From Eledone cirrhosa (Eukaryota): a DNA stretch of 64,000 nt. Positions within the stretch are counted from its first letter, which is position 1; each line of letters begins with the position of its first letter. The notes under the pieces were generated by a model. The model saw only the letters and a program-made list of their open reading frames with translations. It had not been told where the DNA came from and did no database searches. The DNA is taken from the NCBI GenBank assembly GCA_964016885.1, contig OZ024751.1, forward strand, positions 3,038,001-3,102,000. Direction: 5' to 3'. Below, one piece after another: positions 29,462-55,815 of this stretch. A program made the position numbers and the translations under genes.

Positions 29462-29612
29462 GAATACTTCTACATAACTAGAACTGTTTCATTCGTACGA
29501 AATCATCAGGATTGAAACAGTTCTACTCGTGTAGAAGCCATTTCTATATTAGATATTGATGTTTTCACTCTACTAATGTATTGCGTGCCTGATTTAACTC
29601 GGGATCTACACA
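29159..29612. repeat. Nested inverted repeats of a PLE-end-like element around a (TA)n tract
   Basis: 29161-29259 is an inverted copy of 29531-29609, and 29352-29392 of 29457-29496. A related fragment lies at 38611-38647. Confidence 0.75.
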
Positions 29613-34210: not shown

Positions 34211-34247
<37 letters not shown>

Positions 34248-34248
<1 letters not shown>

Positions 34249-34391
34249 ACGAAGGAAATGTGGTAAGGAACCAGGTGGACCATAACGCACCAAAGTACTC
34301 AATACATGAGGTAGTAGAGTGGGTAATGATTTTAGTCCAGAATTAGCCGTCGAAACGGCTTGAGCTCAGCTGTCGGGGTCTTACTGGTTCC

Positions 34392-34439: not shown

Positions 34440-34504
<65 letters not shown>

Positions 34505-34801
34505 TGAAACAAAATGAAAACGAAATTTCATTTCTCACTCTTAGTATGGCACTTACTTAAATGTAAGTATGCATGTATACGTACATACATATATGTATAC
34601 AGACGTACAGTAGCATGCACATATATATATATATATACATATATACATACATATGCATACAGGTACACATACATATATGCACGTATCAGTTTAGCGGCGC
34701 TAACGTCGCTTTGTTCGTTTGTAAACAAACTGAACAGCCTGAATTTATGCCATACGGTGTTAAGGCAACCACGTCACCTTTTTGTTCAACACTGACACAG
34801 G

Positions 34802-34846
34802 AACGATGTACTAGTTTCAAGCTTGTTAGCTATCATCAGCACCGTT
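34802..34846 (-). ncRNA. Minimal type I hammerhead ribozyme
   Basis: Minus strand reads aacggtg CTGATGA t-agct-aaca-agct-t GAAA ctag TA catcgtt. Confidence 0.85.
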
Positions 34847-35267
34847 TACCCATCTGCCAGATAGTTGAACGTTCGAAAGTATATACTTTCCTTATGAAAA
34901 TTAACGGCTGAGCAGCCTAATTTGCATATTGAGTGAGTTAAATCGGTCAGGCATACCGAAAACGATAAATTGAAACAAAATGAAAACGAAATTTCATTTC
35001 TCACTCTTAGTATGGCACTTACTTAAATGTAAGTATGCATGTATACGTACATACATATATGTATACAGACGTACAGTAGCATGCACATATATATATATAT
35101 ATACATATATACATACATATGCATACAGGTACACATACATATATGCACGTATCAGTTTAGCGGCGCTAACGTCGCTTTGTTCGTTTGTAAACAAACTGAA
35201 CAGCCTGAATTTATGCCATACGGTGTTAAGGCAACCACGTCACCTTTTTGTTCAACACTGACACAGG

Positions 35268-35312
35268 AACGATGTACTAGTTTCAAGCTTGTTAGCTATC
35301 ATCAGCACCGTT
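35268..35312 (-). ncRNA. Minimal type I hammerhead ribozyme
   Basis: Identical to the motif at 34802-34846. Confidence 0.85.
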
Positions 35313-36276
35313 TACCCATCTGCCAGATAGTTGAACGTTCGAAAGTATATACTTTCCTTATGAAAATTAACGGCTGAGCAGCCTAATATATATATGTATT
35401 TGTGCGTATACACACACCCCTTATATTATTAGTTCATTACAAGCAAGGAGTTATTGTTGCTGTTGTTTCCCCTTTCCTACTTCCAACTGACAAGAAAGCT
35501 GGTTGAAAAGCATATCAGATAGCAGTGAAAATATTGACAGAACTAATCCTTGCTCTTGCTTACACGCTTAATCGGATATAGAAGACTATACTATACGAGT
35601 GTGGAATTGAGGCAGGGAGGCATGAAGCTTCATCAATTCCAATGTATGTTTTTAATTGCTAATTTGACTGTCTTTTCTTCTGTCTTACCCTTTGCCAAGA
35701 AAACAACAATGCCGTTAAAGAAACAATCAACGATCTTTTGAACAGCTTCTTCCTTTAAAGATACGGAGCCGTGCTTTCACGCTGTGCGAAACTGAACGAT
35801 CAGCAGACAACGTGACCACCCGGGACGCTAACTTGTTTGAAACTTGAAAGAATAGCTGGCATCCTAAATAAAGGGACAGGGGGTACGTCTCTTTGAAAAG
35901 TTATACAAACGGTTTTTTTTCCACTGACGTCCTCTATCGCCGCTATCGCCTCACATACTTTCTGTTCACTTAACGTCAATTGTCGTCTGCTCAAGTAATG
36001 GTGGATGTTGTCTTTCCTTCATTTAATTTTTCAACCTTTTTATTTTTTGTTTCCGTTAATTTTTGAAGGTTTGACATTTCTTCTCCTTTCTTTTTTTGTA
36101 CGAATGACGTTTCAAGAAAGAAAGTGTTAACTGAGTATGTGTGTAGCATATACGGTTAAATTCCCATACACTCGCACACACACAATGTGAGGGGATATAT
36201 ATGTGTGTGTATGTGTTAGTATGCGTGTGTATCAGCTTGCATGTTGATGGGTTAATACTGTAATGAACTAGTCTGA

Positions 36277-36311
<35 letters not shown>

Positions 36312-36877
36312 CCGATACCATAGCACCGACCAAAAAATTGTGTTTTGAAAAGATCACTTTAATTAGTATAGAGAGAACAATATGGTGACCAGCCAAGCAA
36401 TCAACAGAGAAAAAACAACATCGAAACCATGTCTTGTTATTTCTTAACAATCATCTTAACATGTTCTTGAGGGTGGTAATCTGGTATATTACATGTTATC
36501 GCATCACTCAGTGACTACTTCAAACACAGACAGACAGACACACTCTCCCTCTCTCTCCTGCCTATAAATATAATATAATATGATATAATATCTCCTTATA
36601 ATATATAACCAGCAATTTCTCTGTCTGTCTGTCCGACAGTGGAAACACGTGCGCGCGTGGTTGCTATCTCTCTCTCTCTCCAGCTATCCCTCTCTTTTAG
36701 TCTGTCTGTTTCTCTCACTCTCACTCTTTCTCTTTGTAACACACTAACATTCCTCCCCTCTATCGCTGTGACGAATGGGGAGGAGGAGGAGGAGGAGGAG
36801 GAGGAGAGAGTCACTTCGTCACATCACCTCTGCCTTTCTTTCTCTCCCCTCTCAGTCCCTCATTACGTACAGACATT

Positions 36878-37066
36878 AGGGCGGTGGATTGGCAGAATCT
36901 GTAGAGAGTCGGTCACCATGCTTCATAGCATGGAGTTACGTTCCTTTACGGTCTGAGTTCAAATACCGCCGAGGTAAACTTTGCCTTTCATCCTCACGGG
37001 GTCGATAAAATAAAGTACCAGCAATGTACTGGGTAATTGCTGGCCTTGTGCCAAAAGTAGAAACAA
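36878..37066 (+). mobile_element. tRNA-type SINE
   Basis: A-box-like tggcagaatc, B box gagttcaaatacc, and the family core. Confidence 0.85.
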
Positions 37067-37219
37067 TTATTAGAAACATTGCTTCATTTTTACATATCTA
37101 AGCATTAGTAAAATAACTAATAATTTCAAAAGTAATTTTTCAATTCCAATTGTTATGAACAGCAAAACATTAATAATAATTTTGTTCTAAGAAATATATA
37201 TACATTTCTGTGTGTGTAA

Positions 37220-38600
37220 TCTATATATATAAAACTGTGGTTGTCTGTCTGTCTATCGATTTTTGGCACACATCTCCTCTTAGAATCTCTCACCGAAATT
37301 GCTATACTTGTACATTGAGCCCTAGCGAAGACATCGGAAAAAAAAAATTTCAAATTGACCCACCCTATGTGACGAAATCGAATATAATGTATCGATTTTT
37401 GAGCGTAAGTTATCAGTTATTTCCCTTTGTTCTGTTTACATTGAGCGTCTTACGTAAAAAATTACGCTGGCTTTCTCAGCGTTTAAAATGACATTAACAC
37501 AATACACGAACAGTTGTCGAGCCAGCAAAATATTGACCTGCAAAATTCATCAGTTCGAACACTAAGCTTCCGTTTTGCTTCATTTCCATTTAAAAGCATT
37601 TTAAAACAATATTTTTACTTGAAAACAAGTCTATTTAAAGACTACGTAAAACAAGCAAATATTTCGTCGTTAGGCGTGCAGACAGACAGTCGTGCAGACA
37701 GACAGTCGTGCAGAGAGGTGATATACGCGTGCAGACAGACAGTCGTGCAGAGAGGTGATATAGGCGTGCAGACAGACAGTCGTGCAGAGAGGTGATATAG
37801 GCGTGCAGACAGACAGTCGTGCAGAGAGTTGATATAGGCGTGCAGACAGACAGTCGTGCAGAGAGGTGATATAGGCGTGCAGACAGACAGTCGTGCAGAG
37901 AGGTGATATAGGCGTGCAGACAGACATAACTGATAATTTGGTTACGCTAATGTTTTTCTCTGCGTTGCAGTGTTTACATTTTCGATCTTTGTTAATAAAT
38001 AACCAGTGCAGTTTCTATCCCCAGCATCCTCTTTTGTTATAACATTCGGGTTATCGTTATGTTTTCTTAACTTCATAAGGCATATTGTTGGTTGAGGGAA
38101 TATTAATCAAAAACACCACATGCAAGTCTGCACAGTAGACACTACAGTTTTTAAGCCAAGAAAGAAACTTAACATTGTAACTTTAACACAGCTACTGAGC
38201 GACCCCGAGCAACGCCGGGCTTTCATGCAGAGAGGTGATATACGCGTGCAGACAGACAGTCGTGCAGAGAGGTGATATAGGCGTGCAGACAGACATAACT
38301 GATAATTTGGTTACGCTAATGTTTTTCTCTGCGTTGCAGTGTTTACATTTTCGATCTTTGTTAATAAATAACCAGTGCAGTTTTTATCCCCAGCATCCTC
38401 TTTTGTTATAACATTCGGGTTATCGTTATGTTTTCTTAACTTCATAAGGCATATTGTTGGTTGAGGGAATATTAATCAAAAACACCACATGCAAGTCTGC
38501 ACAGTAGACATTACAGTTTTTAAGCCAAAAAAGAAACTTAACATTGTAACTTTAACACAGCTACTGAGCGACCCCGAGCAACGCCGGGCTTTACTGCTAG
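37220..38600 (+). mobile_element. Non-autonomous Helitron-like element
   Basis: Starts a|TCtatatatataaaac and ends with the subterminal hairpin cccgagcaacgccggg followed by CTAG|t, so the insertion lies between A and T. Confidence 0.75.
37671..37925 (+). repeat. 37-bp minisatellite inside the Helitron-like element
   Basis: aggcgtgcagacagacagtcgtgcagagaggtgatat repeated about 6 times. Confidence 0.9.
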
Positions 38601-38746
38601 TATATATATAGACTAGAACTGTTTCATTCTTGAGAAATCACCAGGAATATATATATATATATATATATATTGGTTAGTTTCAGAAGATCCCGTTAAGGGT
38701 GAAAGCAGCGATTCTTTGCTTAAACGTTAATCTTTTATTTTAATAA

Positions 38747-38798
<52 letters not shown>

Positions 38799-39056
38799 GT
38801 AGGTATCTAATATATTAATAATATATATATATATATGTGTGTGTGTGTTATATGTGTGTGTATGCGTGTGTGTGTGTGTGTTATATGTGTGTGTATGCGT
38901 GTGTGTGTGTTATGTGTGTGTGTGTATGTGTGTGTGTATGTGTGTGTGTACGTGTGTGCGTGTGTGTGTTATATATGTGTGTGTGTGTTATGTGTGTGTG
39001 TATGTGTGTGTTTTATATATGGGTGTTTGTGTATATATAATATATATATATATATA

Positions 39057-39243
39057 ATTGTTTCTACTTTTTGGCACAAGGCCAGCAAATACCCAGTACA
39101 TTACTGGTACTTTATTTTATCGACCCCGAAAGGATGAAAGGCAAAGTTAACCTCGGCAGGATTTGAACTCGGATCAGAAAGGGGCGTAACTCTGTACTAC
39201 AAAGCATGTTGTCCGACCCTCTACCGATACTGCCAAACCACCA
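39057..39243 (-). mobile_element. tRNA-type SINE (further partial copies at 30195-30297, 31003-31077, 39543-39644)
   Basis: Same family core, reverse complement. Confidence 0.85.
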
Positions 39244-40432
39244 ATATATATATATATATTATATATGTATATTATGTGTGTCTCTCTATATATATACATA
39301 TATATAGGTTTAAGTGTGCATGTACGTGTGTATGTGTGTCTTAACGTGTGTGCATATGTGCGTATGTATGAGTGTGTGTATGGTATGCGTGTGTGTCTGT
39401 GTGTATCTGTGTAAGTGTTTGTGTGTGTGTGTGTGTGTACAGGAATTCATATGTTTCCTAAAATATGTCTGTATGCTTAATTTTTCTTAAAAATTATAAA
39501 CTGGTTCTTCCTGTCAGAGATAATAATCTGATTTGAGAATAATTGTTTCTACTTTTGGCACAAGGCCAGCAATTACCCAGTGCATTACTGGTACGTTATT
39601 TTATCGACCCCGTAAGGATGAAAGGCGAAGTTAACCTCGGCGGGTTAACCTGATTTGAGAATAATGCATCTCAAAATATGAACATGGGTGTATATATATA
39701 TATGTATGTGTGTGTGTGTCTGTGTTTGTGTTTGTGTGTTTGTGTGTGTGTTAAATATGACACGACACTCGCACACAGAACAGTGTGGCCATTGTCGTCA
39801 TTGAAATATATATCACAGCATTATTATTAAAGGACTTGAACATCTGAAACTACTTCGCTTTTCCTTATTCGATATTTACTCCGTCACTCCTATGTGGAAA
39901 AAGTACGTTGAGTGCTTGAATTGAATTGCATCAATGTTTACCCTAATATATATATATATATGTATGCTTGGTACATATATGCTTGGTAAACACAGGTCTG
40001 TGCTGAAGGTGTTGCTGTACTCCGTCTCCGAATATAAGGGTGGTGCTGATGTTTCACCAGGCGATGAAGTATGTCTGTATATGTTTCGGCCCCTTCCGCT
40101 GAGATACCACAGCTACTCGGGACCTTCCAGTGTTGTAGGCGACGAACTCCCTGCACAACAGCACAATCTTTGGTGAGTCTGATGTGACTCCGTCCACATC
40201 AACGCGTCAGAACACTTTGAAATTTGATGGGTCTGGTGTTATGACGCCGAGCGTGACGTCTCCATCAACCTCAATGTGTCAGGTACACCATTCACGTATA
40301 TATATATATACATATATATTAAGATGGCTAACTGAATACGAACGTGTTTTTTCACCCTTTTTTCTCATTTTCACCCGTTCCTGCCTATTCTCACTCTTTA
40401 TCTCTTTATTTTGTCTTTTATTTCTAACTCTC

Positions 40433-40468
40433 TCTTCTGATGACCGACTAGTGTCCGAAACGTTAAGA
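40433..40468 (+). ncRNA. Minimal type I hammerhead-like motif (PLE pLTR type)
   Basis: tctt CTGATGA cc-gac-tagt-gtc-c GAAA cg TT aaga, with a palindromic AACGTT stem III. Confidence 0.55.
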
Positions 40469-40504
40469 CTCTTCTCCTGCTATTTCATATATGTATATAA
40501 AGAA

Positions 40505-40636
40505 AGCAAGTGGATTCGGGGTTAGGGTGCTGGGCTGACAATCGTGAATCCCGGACCTGGCGGCGTATTATGTCTTTCAGCAAGACACTTTACTTCACCT
40601 TGTTCATCCGATCTATTCAGTTGGGGGAAATGAATT
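40505..40636 (+). mobile_element. Degenerate SINE of a second family (CORE-like central domain)
   Basis: tRNA-like head followed by agcaagacactttacttcaccttgttc. The family assignment is recalled from memory only. Confidence 0.45.
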
Positions 40637-40638
40637 AT

Positions 40639-40872
40639 ATCACAGGTACCAAACTCTTTTGATTTTTACCTTTGTAATGTCACAGGTACCACGTTATATC
40701 GATATTTACCTTTGTAATGTCACAGGTACCACGTTATATCGATATTTACCTTTGTAATGTCACAGGTACCACGTTATATCGATATTTACCTTTGTAATGT
40801 CACAGATACCACGTTATATCGATATTTACCTTTGTAATATCACAGGTGCCAAGTTATATCAACATTTAACTT
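40639..40872 (+). repeat. 40-bp minisatellite, ~5.8 units
   Basis: gtcacaggtaccacgttatatcgatatttacctttgtaat repeated. Confidence 0.9.
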
Positions 40873-41092
40873 TCCTTTGGAACAATAAATGTTATAACGC
40901 GTCTGGCAATCGATCACCATGGAATGTATCGATATAAATCATATTATTACATGGATCTATTGCTTTTTACTCAATGAACCTTCGAATGATAAGATAATTA
41001 ATAGATTGGACCTCTGTCGGTTTTGACGATGAGTGTTCCATTTGTTCAATCCATGGAACAACATGCTTGTGAACTTAATGTTTTAGTAAAAA

Positions 41093-41393
41093 CTAGCAGA
41101 ATGGCCCGGCGTTGCTCGGGATGTGCTCTAGGGTTCTTATATATTTGATATATATTTATCCTTATCGAACCTCGTGAAATAAATACGTTTGTTTATATTT
41201 TGTTATGTATGCAAAAATATCTGTACACGAATATATAATTATATATATATATATATATATATTAAAATAACAGATTAAAGTTTAAGGAAAGAATCGCTGC
41301 TTTCACCCTTAACGGGATCTTCTGAAACAAAAAAAAAAATCAATCTGTGAACGCAGAAGTAAATATTTCGAAAAACGTTACACACTATATATA

Positions 41394-41433
<40 letters not shown>

Positions 41434-41726
41434 AGCGTCATAATGTCGTAATGCAGACAGCCAGACATACAGACAGATATTATAAGGGCGCAACGTTATA
41501 TCTATGTATCTATCTAAAAAGAAAGACTAAGAATTATAGAGAGAGATCGCTAAATCGCCTAATGCGGTCCCTAGGGCATTGAAAATTTGAAAACTTTTCC
41601 TCTGAAAACACTCACAGGACCATAAGTATTTCATGTATAAAGTTTGAAAACATCGGTTGGGTGGTTCTCGAGTTTTAGCGAGCTGACAGACAGACAGACA
41701 GACATACTCTGTTTTAGATATATAGA
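41093..41726 (-). mobile_element. Helitron-like element, possibly composite
   Basis: Minus strand starts a|TCtatatatctaaaac...gtctgtctgtc and ends cccgagcaacgccggg-ccattctg-CTAG|t, with termini similar to 37220-38600. Confidence 0.6.
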
Positions 41727-42188
41727 TTGGCAGTATCGGTAGAGCGTCGGACAATATGTTTTGTGGCATAGAGTTATGGTCCTTTACGTTCTGAATTCAA
41801 ATCCTGCTGAGGTTAGCTTTGCCTTTCATCCTTACGGGGTCGATAAAATAAAGTATCAGTAATGCACTGGGGTCGATTTCATCGACTTTCCCCTCTCCCC
41901 CAAATTGCTGGCATTATGCCTAAATTAGAAATAATAATAATTATTATTATTATTAAAGCACCAGTAAGGTGGTGGATTGGTAGTATTGGTAGGGGGGTCG
42001 GACGCCATGCTTTGCAGCATAGAGTTACGCCCCTTTATAGTCTGAGTTCAAATCCCGCCGAGGTTTACTTTGCCTTTCACCCTTACGGCGTCGATAAAAT
42101 AAAGCACCAGTGATGCACTGGGGTCGATTTATTCGACTTTTCCTTCCCCTTAAAAAAATTGCTGGCCTTGTGCCTAAATTAAAAACAA
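41725..42188 (+). mobile_element. Two tandem tRNA-type SINE copies
   Basis: A/B boxes and family core at 41725-41930 and 41968-42188. Confidence 0.85.
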
Positions 42189-42894
42189 TTATTAAAGCAC
42201 CAGTAATGCATCAACAACCAGCTTAGAAAAATAAAGTATTATTCAATTTTCCTACTGTTTTATTTAACTACGGTCGGGTCCCAAATAACGTGGAATAATC
42301 TTGAGGAGTTATATACGGTAATTCTTTTAGGTTGTCTCTGTTGATTTTTTAAAATACTAGAATTAGTCGTTTATTTACATATTGAGACAAAAACCCATCC
42401 TATTTATTTTATAACGCATAGGATTTCTAGTAATGTGTTTTTTTTTCTCTCAAACATAATGTTATTTTAATGTATAAAGAAATTTAATTGTCGCAGGAAT
42501 AAATTAAAATTTTGCCGGAGATAGATTAACAAAATTTAATAAGCGCGGGGGCGGGGTTGGAATAAGAGCGATGGGGTTGGAAAAAATCCGAAAAATTAAT
42601 AAACAGGGGTGGGGGAGGATTATTCGAGACTCAAGAGTATTTAGAAGAATTATTTATTCATTAAACAAAATGAAAATGAACAACTGTTAATTCTGCATGA
42701 TCCATGTATTAAACTTTATATTGCTGATGGTTATATCACAGCGAGTCATGGAATTAGTTGTGGTTCCGACAGACAAAATAATGTGATATTGCACTGAAAG
42801 TACCACTTCATCTTGTGGAGTTCATTCTTATGGATAGCCATCTTGAATTTAGTAGAGCTGGAGGTGGGAATCTAGGCCAATTCGAGATTCCAGC

Positions 42895-43255
42895 CTGTCT
42901 GATGTTTCCAAAGTTGCAGGTTAAAAAAGAACATATGAGAAAGCAAAGAGGTGGTGGTTGAGAGGCCTAGGATACCAGATGCTTCCACCGGTGTAGATGT
43001 AAAAAGAAAACTCCTGGAGAGCAAACAGGTATGGTTCAGAGTTCTAAAACACCAGATGTTTCCAGCGCTGAAGATTCGGAAAGAAAACGTTTAGAGAGCA
43101 AGCAGGGTGTTTCAGAGGCATATGATACCAGATGCTTCCACCGGTGTATATATAAGAAGAAAAAAAAACCGTCAAAGAGTAAGCAGGAGGTGGTTCAAGG
43201 TCCCATGACACTAGATGTATCCAGCGCTCAGGGATCGAAAGGAAAACTTTCAAAG
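42895..43255 (+). repeat. Degenerate ~77-bp tandem repeat, ~5 units with alternating variants
   Basis: The core (cca)gatgYttcca recurs at ~42901, 42978, 43055, 43131 and 43215. Confidence 0.65.
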
Positions 43256-43874
43256 AATAAACGGTATTTTGCCAGCTTGTGGTTCTGTCTGTCGTGCGAC
43301 AAAGCCCGGGTTTGACGCCGATTTAAACAAATTGCTGCTGGAGAATGCATCGCTGCAGGCCGAAGCTGAAATTAGAGACTTGTCACCTCAGAGACAAAAT
43401 TTGCCAGATATTCCAAAATTAGCTGCACAATTCAATTTAACTTAATCTACTGCACATAACTTAATTTAACTAATTAACCAACGTTAACTAAAATATTTGT
43501 TTAATGTATCTAATTTAATCCCATTTAATTACTTTATTCAGAAATTTCATTTGAAAATAATTGCTGAAAATAAGCCTTCAGAATTAGCTCACTTCCCACC
43601 TTCATACAACCTTAAGATTATTGATCCTCCTTCCCCCACTGTTAGCAAGTTAGACGGGTGGACGGATAGGCAAACGAACACCCAATAAGCTGAAGGTTAA
43701 AAACAGACAACTTGCCAGGCGACTACGTAAAATAATACCGACCAAACTAGTCGTATCATATATTCACTAAGTCGAATATTTAACATTTATAATGGTTACA
43801 TCATAATTAAAACACACCCTCACGCACAAGGACGTGGGTACACGAGCACGTACACACGCATATGTGTCTGAATA

Positions 43875-43950
<76 letters not shown>

Positions 43951-44152
43951 TATGTATACGTACATACATATATGTATACAGACGTACAGTAGTATGTATA
44001 TATATACATACATGCACACATATATATATATCTACGTATGGATTTACCGAACATTTATTAAAATGCTCGGTTTGTTTGTAAACAAACAGCCCGAATTAAG
44101 CCGTACAGTGTTTAGCAACCATCGTTGCCCTTTTGTTCAACACTGACAAAGG

Positions 44153-44197
44153 AACGATCTACTAGTTTCAAGCTTGTTAGCTATCGTCAGCACCGTA
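44153..44197 (-). ncRNA. Minimal type I hammerhead (CUGACGA core, mismatch at the base of stem I)
   Basis: acggtg CTGACGA tagctaacaagctt GAAA ctagTA gatcgt. Confidence 0.7.
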
Positions 44198-44584
44198 TAC
44201 CTTTCTGCCAGATGATTGAACGTCTGAAAGTATATACTTTACTTATGCATATTAACGGCTGAGCAGCCTAATTTGCATATCGAGTGAGTTAATCGGCCGG
44301 GCGCACCGAAAACGATAAATGGAAGAAAAAAAACGAAATTTCATTTCTCACTCTTAGTACGGCTGTTACTTAAATATAAGTATGTATACGTACATACATA
44401 TATGTATACAGACGTACAGTAGTATGTATATATATACATACATGCACATATATATATATATATGTACGTATGGATTTACCGAGCATTTATTATAATGCTC
44501 AATTTGTTTGTAAACAAACATCCCGAATTAAGCCGTACAGTGTTTAGCAACCATCGTTGCCGTTTTGTTCAACACTGACAAAGG

Positions 44585-44629
44585 AACGATGTACTAGTTT
44601 CAAGCTTATTAGCTATCGTCAGCACCGTA
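44585..44629 (-). ncRNA. Minimal type I hammerhead (CUGACGA core)
   Basis: acggtg CTGACGA tagctaataagctt GAAA ctagTA catcgt. Confidence 0.8.
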
Positions 44630-45659
44630 TACCTTACTGTACGTCTGTATACATATATGTATGTACGTATACATACTTATATTTAAGTAACAGCCGTACT
44701 AAGAGTGAGAAATGAAATTTCGTTCCATTTTTTCCACATATATATATATAACAAAGGAATTGTGGTAAGGAACCAGATGGACCATAACGCACTAGGGTAC
44801 TCAATACTTAGGGTAATAGAGTGGGAAATAGGACAAAGTATGACCCCGACGGCAGAGATCAAACCGTTTCGACGGCTATTTCTGGAGTAAATTAGAATTT
44901 TTAGCCCGGTGAATAAATAGCCGAACTTGTCATGGGGGTATTTCCTTGAATGGGAAGATTGTAGTTGTCAAGAGGATTGGTTAAAATTTGTTGTAAACAC
45001 AAATAAGTCTATCATGACATTTGGTGGTAGGTAGGGGTGGCTGAACTTGCCAGTAGAACAATAAGGGAGTGAGTGGAGCAGTCAAGCGTTGAAAGTGATA
45101 TGTATACAGGAGATTCCAAGGATAGTGTATAAAGTGGAGGAGGGAGGTTATAGAATAGGTAAATCGAATGAGAGTAGGAGACAATAAAAGATAATAGAAA
45201 GAAATAAAAAAATATGTAAAATTAGATAGTGAGAAAGGTAATAACAAAAATCACAATGCTATCTTACAGTTATAGGTTAATAAGTTGAGAATAGAAAAAA
45301 CTTGTAGAAATTGAGTAGTACCAGAACTGATACAAAATTAAAGGGGTTTAACACGTCTGCTATAAGTAGTTAGTAAAACGTATCCGGCCAATTCTATCTT
45401 AAAATTACAGAGGTGGGGAAACTGACGCTACAGAGGGCTGATGGGCTGCATCGGGGTAGGCTAAAGGGGAATAGCAGACGAGGAAGAAAATAGGGGGTGG
45501 AAGGAAGTGATAGGATGAGACAGGGGGAAGAAGAAGACAAAGAGGAAAAGAAAAGAAAAGAGATACATCTACCTAAGTAAGCTGGGGTTTCCCCTAACTT
45601 ATACGGCAAGTGTGTGTGTGTGTGGGGGGGGGGGGGGTATCAGCTCTTGTCTACCCTCC

Positions 45660-46160
45660 CGGGTCGTTATGGGGTTCGAGAACGACCTTTTCCACCTGGT
45701 CAAGAGCATTAAATTCAAACCCAGACACAACAGATTCCTACAACAACTACGTAGCAAAATAACAGAGTATGAAAACACCAACGACATCATGGTGCACTTG
45801 AACAAAACTGGAAACCTCTAATTCGTCAACCCTGACAGATACCACACACTGATCGGGAGCAGCCTAAACTCCACCTATAAAAAGGCTAACCATTCAATTA
45901 TCGAGGACATAAATCGAGATGGACAATAAATTACCTCCAGCCTCGGGGTCGCCGACCGCACTGAACCCCTAGACCCAAGGACTCCCTACTTCACACTGAA
46001 GGACCACAAATCCGACTTCGACCGCAAACCATCTATTAGGCTTATAAACTTAACAAAGTCGGACATAGGAAAATCAGTAAAAAGATCCTAGACCGAGTTA
46101 TACCAAAAGTTAACCAAAACGTGAGACTTAGCCTATGGGTCAGCACCCAGGAAGTAATTC
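45660..46160 (+). pseudogene. Degenerate Penelope-like ORF fragment (N-terminal region and start of RT)
   Basis: GFENDLFHLVKSIKFK...KTGNL*...TYKKAN...YFTLKDHKSDFDRKPSIRLIN.TKSDIG parallels the 50277-51677 ORF (FLTLKDHK...CRLINPARTDMG). It contains stop codons. Confidence 0.75.
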
Positions 46161-46618
46161 TAATAAATTTATAATAAATTTCTGGTTGGTTGGTTGGTTC
46201 CACAACCAGATAGTTGTTTATATATTGTCATAGTTCTTTCGTCACACACTCTGTGACCTCTTCAGTGACTGGGGATTCCTTTCTTTGTTTCTGTGCCTCT
46301 CCTTTGTTCTGTCCTACGCCATTTTGTTTCTGTGTGTGTGTTGTGTGTTCAGTCTGCGCATGCGCCACATCCCTAAGTATAACAATATCGGTTTCAACAC
46401 ACGATTTCAGATAAATAATCTTGCTAAACAAATTCAGATACGAAATATATATATATATTATATATATAATATAATATATATATATTATATATATAATATA
46501 TATATATAATATATATAATATATATAATATATATATAATATATATATAATATATATATATTATATATATAATATATATATATATATTTTATATATATAAT
46601 ATATATCTATCTATCTAT

Positions 46619-48625
46619 CTAAGGCGGGTAAAATTCCCGAGATCCATGGACGAGTTCTCTCCAGCGGTCTCTGTCCCTCATTATCGCTGCCATGTCCTGC
46701 GTCTCCAACAGACCAGTGTCTGTCCTTAGGGCATCAACATATGTTAACCTTGGTCTTCCTCTTCCAGTGTGTCCATGTAGGGGCTCCCAAAGGAGCACTG
46801 AGTGCAATGTCAACTCTGGATGTCGGTGAGCATGTCCAGCCAACCTCAGTCTCCTCTGTGTCACTTTTGAGCTGACTTTTGGGAGGCTCCCATACAGCTC
46901 TGAGTTTTTCATCCTCAGTGTATACTGATTAATGTTCAGAGCCATCCTCAGCATTCTCGTGTAGCACCCATCCACCATCTGAGTGAGTCTCTTGGTCAGT
47001 GTCCAAGTCTCAGACCCATACAGCAGCACAGACTCCACTACAGCAATGAAGAGGCAGATTTTCAGGTCTCTACGAAGGTCCGACTTCCACACCGATCTCA
47101 AGCTGTGGCACGCCGCCCAGGCCTTGCTCTTCCTCTCAACCACATCATCTTCCGTATTCCCAATCTTTGCTCCCAAATACAGGAAGTCCTCAACCAATTC
47201 CAGCGGCTTCCCGCCTACATTAGTGATCCCCTCTGGCTTCTCAACATTCTCTACCAGATATTTTGTTTTAGTCTCATTCATTCTCAGCCCCACACTCATC
47301 GACACAGTCTCAACCTCCCGCATCAAATCCTCTGCCTCCTTCACTGTATTTGTCACCAAAACTATGTCGTCGGCAAATTCAGCATCCGATACCTTTTTCG
47401 CCCCAACTCTCCTGCTCTGAGCCGGTGCTACAGTAAAGCCAGAGTCCTGGTGTTTCTCCAGTGCAAGGCGCATACAATAGTCCACTACGATGATAAAAAG
47501 GTAGGGAGCCAATATATCTCCCTGGAGCACTCCAGCCAGTATCTCAAAGAACTCTGTCATCCCATCAGGTGTAATGACTTGGGCTTTGGTGTTGGTGTAG
47601 AGCAGTGATATCAGGTCCACTATCCTCTTGGGGATTCCATAAGCCTGTAAGATCTTCATCAGGCAGTAACGGTCCACAGAATCAAAGGCCTTCCTAAAGT
47701 CAATGAAAACCATGACCGCAGGAAGGCACTTTGCTCTAGCTCCCTCTAATATCCTCCTCAGCATCAGGATGTGACTGGTGGTTGATCTACCCTCTCTGAA
47801 GCCGTTCTGGTTGTCCCTGAGCTTCTTCTCCATCTCAGGCTGGATCCTGTTAAGAATCATCCTGTTGAGGGTCTTTGCCACAAGTGACGTCAGTGAGATC
47901 CCCCGGTAGTTGTTGGTGTTAGAGAGATATCCCTTCTTTGGCACTGGGACGATGTTACTGATCCTCCACTGATTCGGGGCAACTCCTTTCTCCAGTGCCC
48001 CGTTACAGAACCCCAGGATGATATCATCAAAATCACACCACTTCATCACCTCTGATGCCACTCCATCTTCTCCATGAGCCTTGCCCTCCTTGATCTTCTT
48101 CTTGGCTCTCTGAAGCTCCTCTCTGGTGAAGGGCTCTGTCTCAACATCCAGTTCCTCAAACAGCCGCCTGATCTCCCCAGTGCTCTGGGCTGTGGAGGGT
48201 GGCTCTCCTAGTTGGGTCCTAAAATGGTCTAGCCATTTCCTCTTCCTATCCTCGGGCCCCGTTCCCTGGATCTGACTCGAACACCTTTTCTTCCTCCCTG
48301 TGATCTCGCTGATGATCATCCAGCTCTCCTTACATCCAGATCTGTCAACCGCTCTCTCCACACTTCTGATCTTCTCTATCAGTGCCTCCTCTCTGACCTC
48401 AGTGTAAGCGGTACAGAGCTCTTCCCTCATCACCTCCACAGTCTCCATCCTCTCCTCCGTAGGATCAGCATAGAATTGGTCCCTGGCAGCTTTCAGGTGT
48501 TCTCTGGCTGCACACACTTTTGGGTCTGAAGAGCTGACGTGCTTCCCTTTGTTCTTTTTCCTCGGCACCAGGGTTTCACTTGCTTTCGCCACTGCATTGG
48601 TGAAGTGCCCGTACCTCCTCGTCAC
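46619..48625 (-). CDS. Non-LTR retrotransposon reverse transcriptase (RTE clade), lacking the N-terminal APE endonuclease
   Basis: Motifs NYRGISL, QNGFR.GRST, FIDFRKAFDSV, GVLQGD.LAPYLF, FADD, FLYLG, LLYGSETW and GRGRP. Confidence 0.9.
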   Translation of the reverse strand: MTRRYGHFTNAVAKASETLVPRKKNKGKHVSSSDPKVCAAREHLKAARDQFYADPTEERMETVEVMREELCTAYTEVREEALIEKIRSVERAVDRSGCKESWMIISEITGRKKRCSSQIQGTGPEDRKRKWLDHFRTQLGEPPSTAQSTGEIRRLFEELDVETEPFTREELQRAKKKIKEGKAHGEDGVASEVMKWCDFDDIILGFCNGALEKGVAPNQWRISNIVPVPKKGYLSNTNNYRGISLTSLVAKTLNRMILNRIQPEMEKKLRDNQNGFREGRSTTSHILMLRRILEGARAKCLPAVMVFIDFRKAFDSVDRYCLMKILQAYGIPKRIVDLISLLYTNTKAQVITPDGMTEFFEILAGVLQGDILAPYLFIIVVDYCMRLALEKHQDSGFTVAPAQSRRVGAKKVSDAEFADDIVLVTNTVKEAEDLMREVETVSMSVGLRMNETKTKYLVENVEKPEGITNVGGKPLELVEDFLYLGAKIGNTEDDVVERKSKAWAACHSLRSVWKSDLRRDLKICLFIAVVESVLLYGSETWTLTKRLTQMVDGCYTRMLRMALNINQYTLRMKNSELYGSLPKVSSKVTQRRLRLAGHAHRHPELTLHSVLLWEPLHGHTGRGRPRLTYVDALRTDTGLLETQDMAAIMRDRDRWRELVHGSREFYPP

Positions 48626-48688
48626 ACTCTCCTCAGTCCATCCAATCTCTCTCTCCTCTGACTCTCCACACAGAGCACTAAACCTGTT
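46619..48688 (-). mobile_element. 5'-truncated RTE-clade LINE inserted in (TA)n
   Basis: Long uninterrupted RT ORF with TA microsatellite on both sides. The stop codon directly abuts the simple repeat. Confidence 0.9.
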
Positions 48689-49342
48689 TAATATATATAT
48701 ATTTTATATATATAATATATATATATATTTTATATATATAATATATATATATATATTTTAATTATATAATATATATATATATATTTTATATATATATTAT
48801 ATATATATATTTTATATATATAATATATATATAATATATATATATATATTTTATATATATAATATATATATATTTTATATATATTATATATATATATTTT
48901 ATATATATAATATATATATATATTTTATATATATAATAAATATATATATTTTTATATTATATAATATATATATATTTTATATATATAATATATACATATA
49001 TTATATATATATAAATGAAAATAGAGAAATTAGTGTAAGCAAAACTCCAACAATATTTCAGACATATAAGTGACTATACCATCAGGATGAAAAAAAATGT
49101 TAATGTCAAAGTAATACTATCTTAATTTAAAACAAATCAAGAAGAAAAACTTTATCCTCAGACTTTGTTTAAGTTCGGGAAAAAAACACTATAATCTTAA
49201 CACAAAATAAAATCAGGAAGAAATACCTAACCGTCATATATTATATATATATATATATATATAACGAAGGAAATGTGGTAAGGAACCAGGTGAACCATAA
49301 CGCACCAAAGTACTCAATACTTAGGGTAGTAGAGTGGGTAAT

Positions 49343-49465
49343 AGGAACCAGTAAGACCCCGACGGCTGAGCTCAAGCCGTTTCGACGGCTAATTCTGGAC
49401 TATTTAGTCCAGAATTAGCCGTCGAAACGGCTTGAGCTCAGCCGTCGGGGACTTACTGGTTCCTA
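49343..49465. repeat. Near-perfect ~120-bp palindrome of the PLE-terminus-like repeat
   Basis: aggaaccagtaag...ctggacta-tt-tagtccag...ttactggttcct. Confidence 0.9.
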
Positions 49466-49859
49466 TAAATATATATATATATATTATATATATATAGTTG
49501 TAGTACACTGGAATGTAATATCCGTAGTGGTAGAGCACTCAGTCCATGGGACAAGTAAGGTAGATGTGGTTACACAGCAGTTAGTTCACCATACCGAGAA
49601 CAATTGTTTCACCTGAGCGCATCCTCACCTCATAATGGACATGGTTATACGGAACAGGAAGAATAACCGTACGTACGCGCATGCGCAAAAACCGTCACTT
49701 CACACAGGCAATACTAAAAAGCGTGCGAGAGGTGTAAGGGAGATAACTGCGAAAGTCCGAAAAGTTTCTAGTTGATAAGAAAATTAGGATGTTGTTGTGA
49801 TTCAATCCGGAGCTTTGTAGTTATGTAAGAGGTGTTTCGAGACGTGTGGACAACGTGTG

Positions 49860-51890
49860 AAGAATTAATTTCTCGTGTTTAGGCAATCACCATTGCATAA
49901 TCTCTTTAGAATATTTATTCGTTCATCAATACATAGTCCACACGACGGATTTCCCCTTGCGTATGGCTTGGACTTAGTGATGGCTTTTCATTGAATGGAG
50001 AAGTCTAAACTTGAGTCCTTGAGGGACCATACGTGGCTCGCGAGTTTCGTGGATGAATGTCTGTCCGAGTACCTAAAGGTCGACTGGTGGTTCAGGAAGC
50101 GTTCCTTAAATCGGCCCTCCGCTATACCCACATAGGATTTGGTCGGTTGGAATTGACCACAGCTTCATAAATTACAGCGGGTGTGTTGCATTGCTGTTGA
50201 AGGGGACAAGCTTCGGGCTTACATCAATAGCACCCCGGTGGGGTGTTGCTCTTAAGGTTTTTTGTGATGTGGGACTTCATGTTTCAGCGCAGGAGTATCC
50301 TAGTTTTACTTTGTGTCGGTTAAAGATGGAGCGGTATTTATGACCTATGGGAAAGTGTCTATCTAAGAGGGCTAGACATTTTTTGCCTACATTGGTTTTA
50401 ACGTTCAGTGAGAAGGGAGGAGAGAACCAGATAGTTTGTCTATTGTTACGCTTTCTTTTCTTATTGCTGTTGTTGATAGTGGGAGTGTAAGTGATAGGTT
50501 GCGAGAAGCCGCTGTTAGCTAACACCGTGTTATAGTAGGGTGCCGCCCTGTCAAATATAGCCTTATTAGAGGAGAGGCTTGAGATTCTAGTCCTGATATT
50601 AGTTGCGAAGTTTCTAAAAACAGTGGGAGGGTGGCTTGAGTCCTTGTGAATGTTATTGAGTTTTTTGTTTAGCTTATGGATGGGTCTGTAGGTATGTGTC
50701 CGAAGGTCTAAATTAATGTCTAAGAAATCTACGCTAGAGAGGTTGGTAGCTACCGTTATCGTAAGTCCTATCTCATTGAAGGTAGACGCTAAGTCTTTTT
50801 TAAACCAGTCGAGGTCTTGACGACTTTTATGGCTCGATAAGATCAGTCCGTCGTCGCGGTATATTCCCGTGTGGAAGTCCGGGAATCTAACACGAAATAT
50901 ATCTAAAATAAATAGGCCAACCAAGTCGCATACGTCAGCACTGTCAAACGATCCCATGGAGACGTCGAATAGGTCTGAAGTTGTTGACTTCTTTTCCCAT
51001 GCTACTCCGTCGTTGAAGAGGAGGGTTTTTCTGCAGTGAGAAATTATTTCCCTGTCTAAACCATCGATGGTAGTGTAAGTGGTAGCGAAGTCAAACGCTG
51101 TGTTTAACAGGGTCTCTGAGATCGACGGGTAAAAATCAACAATGTCGAACTGTGTGAACTTCGCTTTTTTGGATTTTAAGGAGTTAAACCACCTAATTAC
51201 GGAGTCACTGTTCTCCCACTGGGACAGGTTGGACTTGGTCCTAATGGTCTTAACTATGTTTCTGAGTATGGCCTTACTGACTAGTCCCATATCTGTGCGA
51301 GCCGGGTTTATTAGTCTACATGTGGAGTTAGAAGTAAAGTCTACCTTGTGATCTTTCAGGGTGAGGAACGCCACCCGCTTAGCTAGAGATTGTAGATTCT
51401 TATCTACCTTAAGGGCGGCGGCAAGTTCTTTGGCTTCTGTATTAATGTCGTGGTAGGCCATAGGGTTAGCTTTCTTATATTTGGAAGTAATAGCGTTATG
51501 GGCCAGGTGGCGGAAAGTGGTGTTGTCGACTTCGTAAATATTATTACTTTTGTCGGAAAGAACGAAAGTGTTATTAGAGGACCTAAATTTCTTAATATCA
51601 TTTCTAAGTTTAGTTTGAAAGGTGTTAGGGTGTTTGCGAAAGGAAATGTTAGCGACTAAGTCAAGAAGGTCCGCCACGAAAGGAGCAAGTTCAGTTCCCT
51701 TAGGAAGGTAGGCTCTCGATTTCAGGTTGAAGGTGTTATTGGTGCCTGCAATTTTGCCGTCAAAAGCTAGGGCTCACGATCTTAAGCGTCTGACGACATC
51801 TTCCGATTTTTGTAGGAGTATGTTTTGGTAAACATGGTTGGAGGGAGTGGGAATGTTCTTCAGGGAGTAATCCAGTTCGTATAAATCCAT
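49860..51890 (-). pseudogene. Frameshifted Penelope ORF (RT plus GIY-YIG endonuclease)
   Basis: MDLYELDYSLKNIP..., TLKDHK, QFDIVDFYPSI, SMGSFDSADVCDLVG, YRDDGL, WFSPPFS, then in other frames VIYEA...SYVG...RFKER..NH...CGLC. The upstream repeat keeps VVYEA...KSYVG in one frame. Confidence 0.88.
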
Positions 51891-52144
51891 ACTGACGTTG
51901 ATGAGACGCAAAATTGTGTAGGACACGAGGATATAGAGAGCGCTCACAGGGTTGTAAGCCAAACTCGCACATGGTGAAGAATATGCTAAAATCCAATCTT
52001 CTACGTAGTGAAGAGAATCTGCTGACCGTTGCTGGAGACGTATATAGTGGTAGACCACTGGAAGGTAATGTCCGTAGTGGTAGAGCACTCAGTCCATTGG
52101 ACGAGTTAGGTAGAAGTGGTTACACAACAGTTAGTTCACCATAC

Positions 52145-52182
52145 CGAGAACAATGGTTTCACATTATCGGATCCTCAGCTCG
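52145..52182 (-). ncRNA. Minimal hammerhead motif in the Penelope pLTR (degenerate twin at 49595-49632)
   Basis: cgag CTGAGGA tccgataatgt GAAA ccattG TT ctcg. The twin has a palindromic ACAATTGT stem III but a GTGAGGA core. Stem II is weak. Confidence 0.55.
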
Positions 52183-52812
52183 TAATGGACATGGTTATAC
52201 GGAACAGGAAGGACAACCGTACGAACGCGCATACGCAGAAACCGTCACTTCACAGAGGCAATACTAAAAAGCGTGCGAGAGGTGTAAGGGAGAGAACGGC
52301 GAAAGTCCGAGAAGTTTCTAGTTGATAAGAAAATTAGGATGTTGTTGTGATTCAATCTGGAGCTTTGTAGTTATGTAAGAGGTGTTTCGAGACGTGTGGA
52401 CAACGTGTGAAGAATTAATTTCTCGTGTTAGAGGCAATCACTATTGCATAATCTCTTTAGAATATTTATTCGTTCATCAATACATAGTCCACACGACGGA
52501 TTTCCCCTTGCGTATGGCTTGGACTTAATGATGGCTTTCCATTGAATGGAGTAGAATATACTTGAGTACTTGAGAGATCATACGTGGCTCGCGAGTTTCG
52601 AGGATGAACCTATGTCGGGGTACCTAAAGGTCGACTGGTGGTTCAGGAAGCGTTCCTTAAATCGGTCCTCCGCCATACCCACATAGGATTTGACCTCCTG
52701 TGGTTGATTTGGTTGGTTGGAAGTGACCACAGCTTCATAAACTACAGCGGCTAATTAGCCGTCGAAACGGCTTGAGCTCAGCCGTCGGGGTTTTACTTGT
52801 TCCTATATACAT

Positions 52813-52875
<63 letters not shown>

Positions 52876-52913
52876 ATTATATATATATATATATATATTA
52901 TATATATGTTTAT

Positions 52914-52945
<32 letters not shown>

Positions 52946-52951
52946 ATATAT

Positions 52952-53508
52952 CTAAGGCGGATAAAATTCCCGAGATCCATGGACGAGTTCTCTCCAGCGG
53001 TCTCTGTCCCTCATTATCGCTGCCATATCCTGCATCTCCAAGAGACCAGTGTCTGTCCTTAGGGCATTAACATATGTTAACCTTGGTCTTCCTCTTCTAG
53101 TGTGTCCATGTAGGGGCTCCCAAAGGAGCACTGAGTGCAATGTCAACTCTGGATGTCGGTGAGCATGTCCAGCCAACCTCAGTCTCCTCTGTGTCACTTT
53201 TGAGCTGACTCTTGGGATGCTCCCATACAGCTCTGAGTTTTTCATCCTCAGTGTATACTGATTAATGTTCAGAGCCATCCTCAACATTCTCGTGTAGCAC
53301 CCATCCACCATCTGAGTGTATTTGGGAGCAAAGATTGGGAATACGGAGGATGATGTGGTTGAGAGGAAGAGCAAGGCCTGGGCGGCGTGCCACAGCTTGA
53401 GATCGGTGTGGAAGTCGGACCTTCGTAGAGACCTGAAAATCCGCCTCTTCATTGCTGTAGTGGAGTGTGTGCTGCTGTATTGGTCTGAGACTTGGACACT
53501 GACCAAGA
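52952..53508 (-). mobile_element. Short RTE LINE copy with inverted 5' part
   Basis: 52952-53318 matches the 3' end of the 46619 element. 53318-53508 is the adjacent upstream segment in the opposite orientation. Confidence 0.9.
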
Positions 53509-53544
53509 ATATAATATATATATATATATATATAGAATAGTATA

Positions 53545-53675
53545 AAACGAAATTTCATTTCTCACTCTTATACGGCACTTACTTAAATGTAAGTTTATAT
53601 GTATGTATACGTACATACATATATGTATACAGACGTACATATATTATATATATATATATTAATTATATATATATA

Positions 53676-53748
<73 letters not shown>

Positions 53749-53901
53749 ATATATTATATATATATTATATATATATATATTATATATTTATATATATATA
53801 TATATTATATATATATTATATATATATATATTATATATAAATATATAAATATATATATATATATACAGTATATATATATATAATATATATAATATATATA
53901 A

Positions 53902-53944
<43 letters not shown>

Positions 53945-54379
53945 TAAGTATGTACACGTACATACATATATATATATACAGACGTACAGTAGTATGTATG
54001 TATATATACATACATGCACACATATATATATGCACGTATGGATTCACCGAACATTTATTATAATGCTCGGTGTGTTTGTAAACAAACATCCCGTATTAAG
54101 CCGTAGTGTCTAGCAACCACCGTTGCTCGTTTGTTCAACTCTGAAAAAGGAACGCTGTACTAGTTTCAAGCTTGTTAGCTATCGTCAGCAACGTATACCT
54201 TCCTGCCAGATTGTTGAACGTATATACTTACCTTATGCATATTAACGGCTGAGTAGCCCAATATGCATATCGAGTGGGTTAATCGGCCGGGTGCACCGAA
54301 AACGATAAACGAAAAAACGAAACGATATTTCATTTCCCACTCTTAGTACGGCTGTTACTTAAATATAAGTATGTACACG
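53545..54379 (-). mobile_element. Retrozyme-like family A, older ~1.1-unit copy with expanded internal (TA)n
   Basis: Homologous to the 43945 subfamily, with an HHR at 54151-54195. Confidence 0.75.
54151..54195 (-). ncRNA. Minimal type I hammerhead with a covarying stem I
   Basis: acgttg CTGACGA tagctaacaagctt GAAA ctagTA cagcgt, where U.G replaces the family G.U pair. Confidence 0.8.
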
Positions 54380-54670: not shown

Positions 54671-54675
<5 letters not shown>

Positions 54676-54747
54676 GTAAGTATGTATGTATACGTACATA
54701 CATATATGTATACAGACGTACAGTAGCATGCACATATATATATATAT

Positions 54748-54791
<44 letters not shown>

Positions 54792-55253
54792 GCATACAGG
54801 TACACATACATATATGCACGCATCAGTTTAGCCTACGTTTATTATAACGCCGGCCGCTTTGTTCGTTTGTTTGTCAACAAAGCGAACAGCCTGAATTTAT
54901 GCCATACGGTGTTAAGGCAACCACGTCACCTTTTTGTTCAACACTGACACAGGAACGATGTACTAGTTTCAAGCTTGTTAGCTATCATCAGCACCGTTTA
55001 CCCATCTGCCAGATAGTTGAACGTTCGAAAGTATATACTTTCCTTATGAAAATTAACGGCTGAGCAGCCTAATTTGCATATTGAGTGAGTTAAATCGGTC
55101 AGGCATACCGAAAACGATTAGTTGAAAAAAAAATGAAAACGAAATTTCATTTCTCACTCTTAGTATGGCACTTACTTAAATGTAAGTATGTATGTATACG
55201 TACATACATATATGTATACAGACGTACAGTAGCATGCACATATATATATATAT

Positions 55254-55307
<54 letters not shown>

Positions 55308-55769
55308 GCATACAGGTACACATACATATATGCACGCATCAGTTTAGCCTACGTTTATTATAACGCCGGCCGCTTTGTTCGTTTGTTTGTCAACAAAGCG
55401 AACAGCCTGAATTTATGCCATACGGTGTTAAGGCAACCACGTCACCTTTTTGTTCAACACTGACACAGGAACGATGTACTAGTTTCAAGCTTGTTAGCTA
55501 TCATCAGCACCGTTTACCCATCTGCCAGATAGTTGAACGTTCGAAAGTATATACTTTCCTTATGAAAATTAACGGCTGAGCAGCCTAATTTGCATATTGA
55601 GTGAGTTAAATCGGTCAGGCATACCGAAAACGATTAGTTGAAAAAAAAATGAAAACGAAATTTCATTTCTCACTCTTAGTATGGCACTTACTTAAATGTA
55701 AGTATGTATGTATACGTACATACATATATGTATACAGACGTACAGTAGCATGCACATATATATATATAT

Positions 55770-55815
<46 letters not shown>

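Follow-up and report, generated by a model that had tools for sequence, protein, structure and literature searches.

Retrozymes other than the one described here self-cleave, some of them as dimers, and build up as circles in vivo (PMC7229834, PMC4209133). Their return to DNA has been a hypothesis since 2020, when Penelope-like elements (PLEs) were named a 'strong candidate' for their mobilization (PMC7229834), a proposal restated in a review of the same year (PMC7761336). Insertions of PLEs themselves combine an inverted truncated arm with a one-sided tail (PMC8557442, PMC3846280), and a PLE protein from a lizard has been shown in vitro to nick AT-rich DNA on both strands and to begin reverse transcription at two internal positions, which mark the limits of the tail (PMC11167929). 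The window analyzed here, 64,000 nucleotides of Eledone cirrhosa (assembly GCA_964016885.1, contig OZ024751.1, positions 3,038,001 to 3,102,000), holds several insertions of a tandem retroelement that is non-coding, carries a hammerhead motif and numbers about 24,000 copies; its insertions have their ends at two fixed sites within the unit. These scars point to an enzyme class, a target, two priming sites and a selected RNA fold, and provide junction-level evidence that PLE-like machinery likely mobilizes retrozymes; the kind of element is known, the insertion anatomy is new.

The window contains 18 type I hammerhead motifs, borne by non-coding units of 420-540 bp. Five of them lie inside the interval covered by an initial annotation of this DNA, which ends just short of a fourth locus, a two-armed array at 54671-61326 with the other 13 ribozymes. 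All hammerhead features named in that annotation are present on the minus strand, with units of 466 bp and 432 bp at 34.5 and 44 kb and a further copy at 54.1 kb. On this strand the motif consists of a 5-bp stem I, CUGANGA, a 4-bp stem II capped by an AAYA loop, GAAA, a palindromic stem III of very few base pairs and a GUA site, and thus has the CUGANGA and GAAA cores, the UH site and the stem order of type I hammerheads. The catalytic positions are undamaged in 66 of 74 flank-anchored copies. Rfam returned no hammerhead at its gathering thresholds, nor was one among the 150 of 200 E-value matches listed. In the 3.0-Gb genome, exact pattern matching gave 24,001 hits for a 31-nt core pattern and 23,038 for an independent 18-nt flank pattern, and none for either reversed control; the family is consequently dispersed, as the initial annotation had proposed in preference to a local satellite. 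Short non-coding tandem units with one type I hammerhead apiece, no long terminal repeat (LTR) or open reading frame (ORF), dispersal and high copy number identify the family, on sequence grounds, as a non-LTR retrozyme, a kind already known, whose ribozyme activity is predicted.

The insertion anatomy was established on loci listed by the core and flank patterns for the first 30 Mb of contig C1, together with the window and 10 kb on each side of it (81 regions, 423,988 bases). Among 146 arms, 61 terminate at a short (S) end about 221 nt past the cleavage site (251 in the numbering of the 466-bp unit) and 64 at a long (L) end about 277 nt past it (310 in that numbering), so that 125 arms end at S or L and 21 elsewhere. 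Both sites are 56-59 nt apart, the S site sits immediately 3' of a small hairpin loop, and 112 of the 125 S or L ends adjoin (TA)n, a microsatellite target in which a target-site duplication is invisible. Adjacent arms are joined head-to-head in 46 cases and tail-to-tail in none. These pairs comprise 35 of S with L, none of S with S or L with L, and 11 with one odd end; one S+L locus is a duplicate, leaving 34 independent ones. According to arm lengths, the S arm extends further upstream than the L arm at 21 of these 34 loci. As the S arm is often the longer while the L arm has the tail, both arms are derived from the template and not copied from each other; fold-back self-priming as the origin of the second arm is ruled out by the same lengths. 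The 5' ends of 124 arms are scattered round the unit, none of them stopping at the cleavage site, and the 6 arms that were scored at the cut all run on into the ribozyme. Hence, the template had an intact ribozyme junction.

An inverted, 5'-truncated arm joined head-to-head and a pair of fixed 3' ends, one of which carries a tail, are the features of PLE-type insertions. These ends, absent from the initial annotation, are the informative trait, and we regard mobilization of the retrozyme by a PLE as very probable. Spread by an RTE-like enzyme of a long interspersed nuclear element (LINE), or by rearrangement at the DNA level, with the two-armed shape explained by twin priming, appears highly improbable. 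A LINE-type reverse transcriptase (RT) is indeed encoded in the window (46622-48703, minus strand, Pfam RVT_1), and simple repeats are generally known as possible LINE targets. Twin priming yields non-overlapping arms from one RNA 3' end, whereas the arms here overlap and end at two fixed internal sites, following an end rule that matches the PLEs of the same genome.

These PLEs comprise three autonomous families, all with two ends in (TA)n and with opposite ends on opposite arms. The family of the broken copy at 49.5-52.2 kb ends about 35 and 105 nt past its hammerhead, at sites about 70 nt apart; in a young intact family, 36 and 37 ends fall at two sites separated by 83 nt, and a third has 29 and 29 ends at sites 88 nt apart. 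Their proteins show RWK-like and DKT motifs, a CxCX5C linker, a C-terminal GIY-YIG, and CxxC and CxH, in combination with the (TA)n target. Pfam gave no match for the PLE proteins; compared by eye with the motif list in PMC8557442, the candidate partners carry the features of the Hydra clade, and a 'Neptune' label was dropped for Hydra after comparison with the motifs in section 11 of that paper. The broken element in the window serves as context and is at most a candidate partner of the retrozyme. Among the fetched PLE loci, a very young intact Hydra-type PLE (L175:3256-5607) has a 3,531-bp unit with a 784-aa frame, an intact example of which spans G000:C1:437200256-437202607, and forms 4-unit tandems; in place of the canonical CUGANGA core it has no more than a degenerate arrangement resembling a hammerhead. 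This PLE is represented in the window at 34246-34391 and 44740-46150, and its small head-to-head S+L stumps are common, one of them standing beside the 34.5-kb insertion. A young Hydra-type family at L209-L220 has a 713-aa frame, a tail of 88 nt and a hammerhead-like motif with A for U4.

The same end rule recurs in a second, unrelated retrozyme of this genome with a 310-bp unit and 8,712 core matches (L241:1532-1841 region and G000:C1:5544272-5546336). Its hammerhead is of like design, with the U.U pair and the AAYA loop, and its palindromic stem III has a different sequence. Its arrays reach 27 or more units per arm, its two ends lie about 26-30 nt apart, and S is paired with L in 4 of 4 two-armed insertions.

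The arrays themselves bear on how multimers arise. Insertions made short by a PLE might later grow by unequal crossover, as a 2026 preprint proposes for retrozymes derived from pseudo-LTRs (pLTRs) (10.64898/2026.07.22.740005), and it fits this proposal that 74 of 124 arms contain one ribozyme and 31 none (two or more in 19), and that monomers vary in the length of the (TA) tract. Arrays with the same monomer occur, however, on both arms of single insertions (7+6, 2+7), they retain exact S and L ends, and young arrays hardly differ in sequence from copies at distant loci, which makes later growth quite improbable. In the array at 54.7-61.3 kb, the 11 full monomers differ, besides (TA) length, at 8 columns, each private to one monomer, and no order of variants is common to both arms.

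The strong signal of constraint lies in the fold of the whole unit, not in the hammerhead alone. Folded as circles, monomers of different subfamilies are predicted to share one multi-branch plan. Their circular-fold z-scores of -6 to -12, although inflated by the (TA) hairpin, indicate a stable self-paired monomer. Covariation was assessed by a permutation test of our own, not by R-scape, on structures predicted from single sequences and 145 rows, after removal of the (TA) hairpin, the columns of the core and locus L038, which is hypermutated; in the null model pairing partners were re-dealt while rows were kept whole. Observed compensatory pairs numbered 7, 6 and 8, where 1.2, 0.7 and 2.0 were expected (p = 0.0005 each). 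Pairing was kept at ratios of 29:19, 39:9 and 37:27 for pair types found in at least five copies, compared to 33:122, 35:109 and 35:129 for singletons. Such compensatory changes across the unit argue for selection on the whole-unit fold at the RNA stage. Long-range stems that bracket the S and L end sites are among the covarying helices.

Constraint within the hammerhead taken alone is weak. It was studied in 75 copies picked with the flank pattern, a single copy for each locus and strand, with four rows part-masked as truncated. The initial annotation held that the ribozyme fold was selected during propagation, and had named beforehand absent covariation or equal divergence inside and outside the motif as grounds for rejection. 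Both were found in part: conservation of the whole motif does not exceed that of its flanks (p = 0.72), because the flanks are structurally constrained themselves, and a single pair within the hammerhead, in stem I, covaries. For the core there is modest support for selection during propagation. On internal tree branches, neither the 11 catalytic columns (5 private changes) nor the 4 columns of stem III (6 private changes) have changed at all, and this 0:11 ratio differs from the 54 internal-branch to 128 private changes of the flanks (Fisher p = 0.036). Motif changes common to several copies are confined to N7, loop II and stem I. N7 is indeed variable, being U in the 34.5-kb copies and C in those at 44 and 54.1 kb, and so is the stem II loop (AAUA at 44587, AACA in the other copies). 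A double change in stem I at 54.1 kb exists as well, the third pair being U.G at 54153 and G.U in others, but it represents one lineage event, since U.G is the state of 32 of the 75 copies (G.U in 28, A-U in 11, few U.U intermediates). The stem I mismatch assigned to position 44153 is a G opposite G at base 44159 of the copy starting at 44155. The three copies are diverged as claimed, by 15.8%, 20.8% and 8.2% between them outside the (TA)-rich part, yet the copy at 54.1 kb, described as older, turns out to be young, 1.0% away from two loci on another contig.

In our preferred reading, a structured and probably circular RNA likely serves as the template from which the RT-endonuclease of a Hydra-type PLE, acting in trans, copies the retrozyme. 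Tandem copies would be transcribed, and, by analogy with known retrozymes, the hammerheads would cut the multimer, probably as dimers via the palindromic stem III, after which monomers would be ligated to circles. The RNA would take the predicted multi-branch fold in which the covariation is seen. A PLE protein, probably a dimer, would then nick both (TA)n strands, and reverse transcription would start at two internal sites 56-59 nt apart, one per strand, in agreement with the observed ends. Each complementary DNA (cDNA) would pass the intact ribozyme junction and continue over a variable distance, up to 7 units in the products seen; the two cDNAs would be joined at their truncated ends, or one would be lost to leave a single arm. 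We infer that one strand is primed at S and the opposite strand at L, and that multimers result from rolling-circle copying. Given mobilization by a PLE, a circular template is itself fairly probable. More tentative, and slightly short of an even chance, is the wider proposal that a dimeric Hydra-type PLE enzyme uses animal retrozyme circles as rolling-circle templates, recognizing them by their fold without homology to the helper, priming internally at two structure-defined points, one per (TA)n strand, and generating head-to-head multimers in one event.

The same PLE machinery might instead copy a linear, uncleaved read-through multimer or jump repeatedly between templates, with the hammerhead as a passenger or acting at another step and no circle needed. 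In vitro, uncleaved RNA is the main substrate of the PLE protein (PMC11167929). The lowest-energy fold predicted for the retrozyme is without the catalytic core, the active core fold reaching -0.5 versus -10.2 kcal/mol in the monomer and -17.8 versus -23.1 kcal/mol in the dimer. The 4-unit tandems of an autonomous PLE without the canonical hammerhead core imply that tandems need not mean circles, and a tandem transcript could form all covarying helices too. A linear template is nevertheless unlikely in view of the 15 catalytic and stem III columns without shared changes, the palindromic stem III that the 310-bp retrozyme retains though its sequence differs, the order of monomer variants, which both arms do not have in common, and the circles that other retrozymes make in vivo (PMC7229834).

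Copying of a retrozyme circle by a PLE in trans has to be weighed against the substrate preference, the predicted folds and the tandems just mentioned, and against further points. Start sites are alike on both strands in vitro (PMC11167929). Sequence homology to the retrozyme unit was not found in any of the four or five PLE families that were compared with it, and the tail length of none of these families equals that of the retrozyme. Stem II is closed by U.U in 71 of 75 copies, in place of the usual G10.1-C11.1 pair. The class windows for S and L were fixed after inspection of the data, and the sample is small and mainly from one contig. Expression of the tandem copies is presumed, and self-cleavage and circles are carried over from known retrozymes. 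RNA editing was dropped as a general support, as an excess of A>G on the sense strand (23 versus 5 T>C, p = 0.001) did not recur when the whole unit was counted (33 versus 27, p = 0.8).

Table 1. Retrozyme insertions, hammerhead motifs and the Penelope-like element in the window (coordinates count from its first base)
Position	Strand	Feature	Basis
34499..35387	-	One-armed insertion with 1.9 units (466-bp subfamily) and an L 3' end, flanked by (TA)n to either side	
34499..34558	-	'Tail', 59 nt between S and L end sites (monomer positions 251-310), conserved hairpin	
34804..34844	-	Type I hammerhead motif, cleavage predicted between 34809 and 34808	sequence
35270..35310	-	Type I hammerhead motif, cleavage predicted between 35275 and 35274; 466 bp from the preceding motif	sequence
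43941..44633	-	S-ended arm with 1.6 units (432-bp subfamily), its 3' end lying in (TA)n	
44155..44195	-	Hammerhead motif, private G.G mismatch at first stem I pair	
44587..44627	-	Hammerhead motif, loop II AAUA; 432 bp from the preceding motif	
44634..44738	+	Inverted L-ended arm, head-to-head with 43941..44633 in one insertion, 3' end in (TA)n	
49490..52200	-	Broken autonomous PLE, Hydra-clade motifs, own hammerhead at 52178	
53535..53713	-	Separate L-ended stump without ribozyme, flanked by (TA)n tracts	
53939..54379	-	S-ended single arm, third and young subfamily; 5' end adjoins another hammerhead-bearing repeat	
54153..54193	-	Hammerhead motif, third stem I pair U.G (subfamily-diagnostic)	
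54671..58393	-	S-ended arm of two-armed array, 7 ribozymes, units of 506-516 bp	
58394..61326	+	L-ended arm, 6 ribozymes, head-to-head with 54671..58393, built from the same monomer	

A hint of RNA editing in the retrozyme is limited to two loci. At L038:1410-2164, 16 and 11 private A>G changes lie on the RNA strand, resembling hyper-edited RNA copied to DNA, and at L097 four private A>G changes are common to both arms. Besides the elements listed in Table 1, the window contains further CUGANGA motifs of other repeat families at 29509, 40437, 46265, 54411, 62493, 63037, 63390 and 63982, several of them in palindromic stumps (62460-62700), and these motifs probably represent PLE ends. A strongly C/G-skewed array of 30-bp units, 26.8 kb long, occupies positions 1-26828, a 37-bp tandem repeat inside a two-copy 369-bp repeat lies at 37691-38592, and a second LINE-type RT fragment (52955-53554, minus strand, Pfam RVT_1) accompanies the one mentioned above.

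Young intact candidate helper PLEs are present in the genome, which brings the return of retrozymes to DNA within reach of a direct assay in vitro. Were an enzyme to copy circular RNA into DNA by internal priming, it would also be of interest as a tool.

The family resembles the non-LTR retrozymes of metazoans (Cervera and de la Pena 2020, PMC7229834) in its non-coding tandem units with a type I hammerhead each, low GC content, thousands of dispersed copies and a highly paired predicted circle. The U.U at the base of helix II is found in the weakly active axolotl HHR_Amex2 and a weak palindromic helix III in HHR_Amex1 of the same paper. Whereas those retrozymes measure 170-400 nt, the units here reach 420-540 bp and include a (TA)-rich hairpin, and inverted insertions and fixed ends are absent from the main text of that paper. 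Our literature search, with the supplements of PMC7229834 and of the 2026 preprint and subscription journals outside its range, retrieved no description of tails or inverted arms in retrozyme insertions. In the portions covered, a 2026 octopus repeat annotation is without 'ribozyme' or 'retrozyme' (PMC13282606), and a schistosome satellite paper without 'tail' (PMC8490949). The preprint (Li, Clavereau, Pollet 2026) likewise has PLEs mobilizing animal retrozymes, on the evidence of co-occurrence and pLTR homology in Xenopus, whereas our evidence is junction anatomy; pLTR homology was not found here, only nested retrozyme copies matching in the fetched PLE loci. Its main text contains no 'tail', 'insertion site' or mollusc and leaves the mechanism open. 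With endonuclease-containing (EN+) PLEs (Craig 2021, PMC8557442; Arkhipova 2013, PMC3846280) the insertions share inverted arms joined head-to-head, a one-sided tail and random 5' truncation, and with the Hydra clade the (TA)n target (PMC8557442). Unlike EN+ PLEs, the retrozyme has no ORF, consists of a closed unit of 420-540 nt with up to 7 per arm, and has a tail of 56-59 nt instead of 30-40. Similar to the PLE of Frangieh 2024 (PMC11167929), it ends at two internal sites, yet both strands are treated equally in vitro, whereas pairing here is strictly one short with one long, a rule that limits models of how PLE enzymes treat the two target strands.

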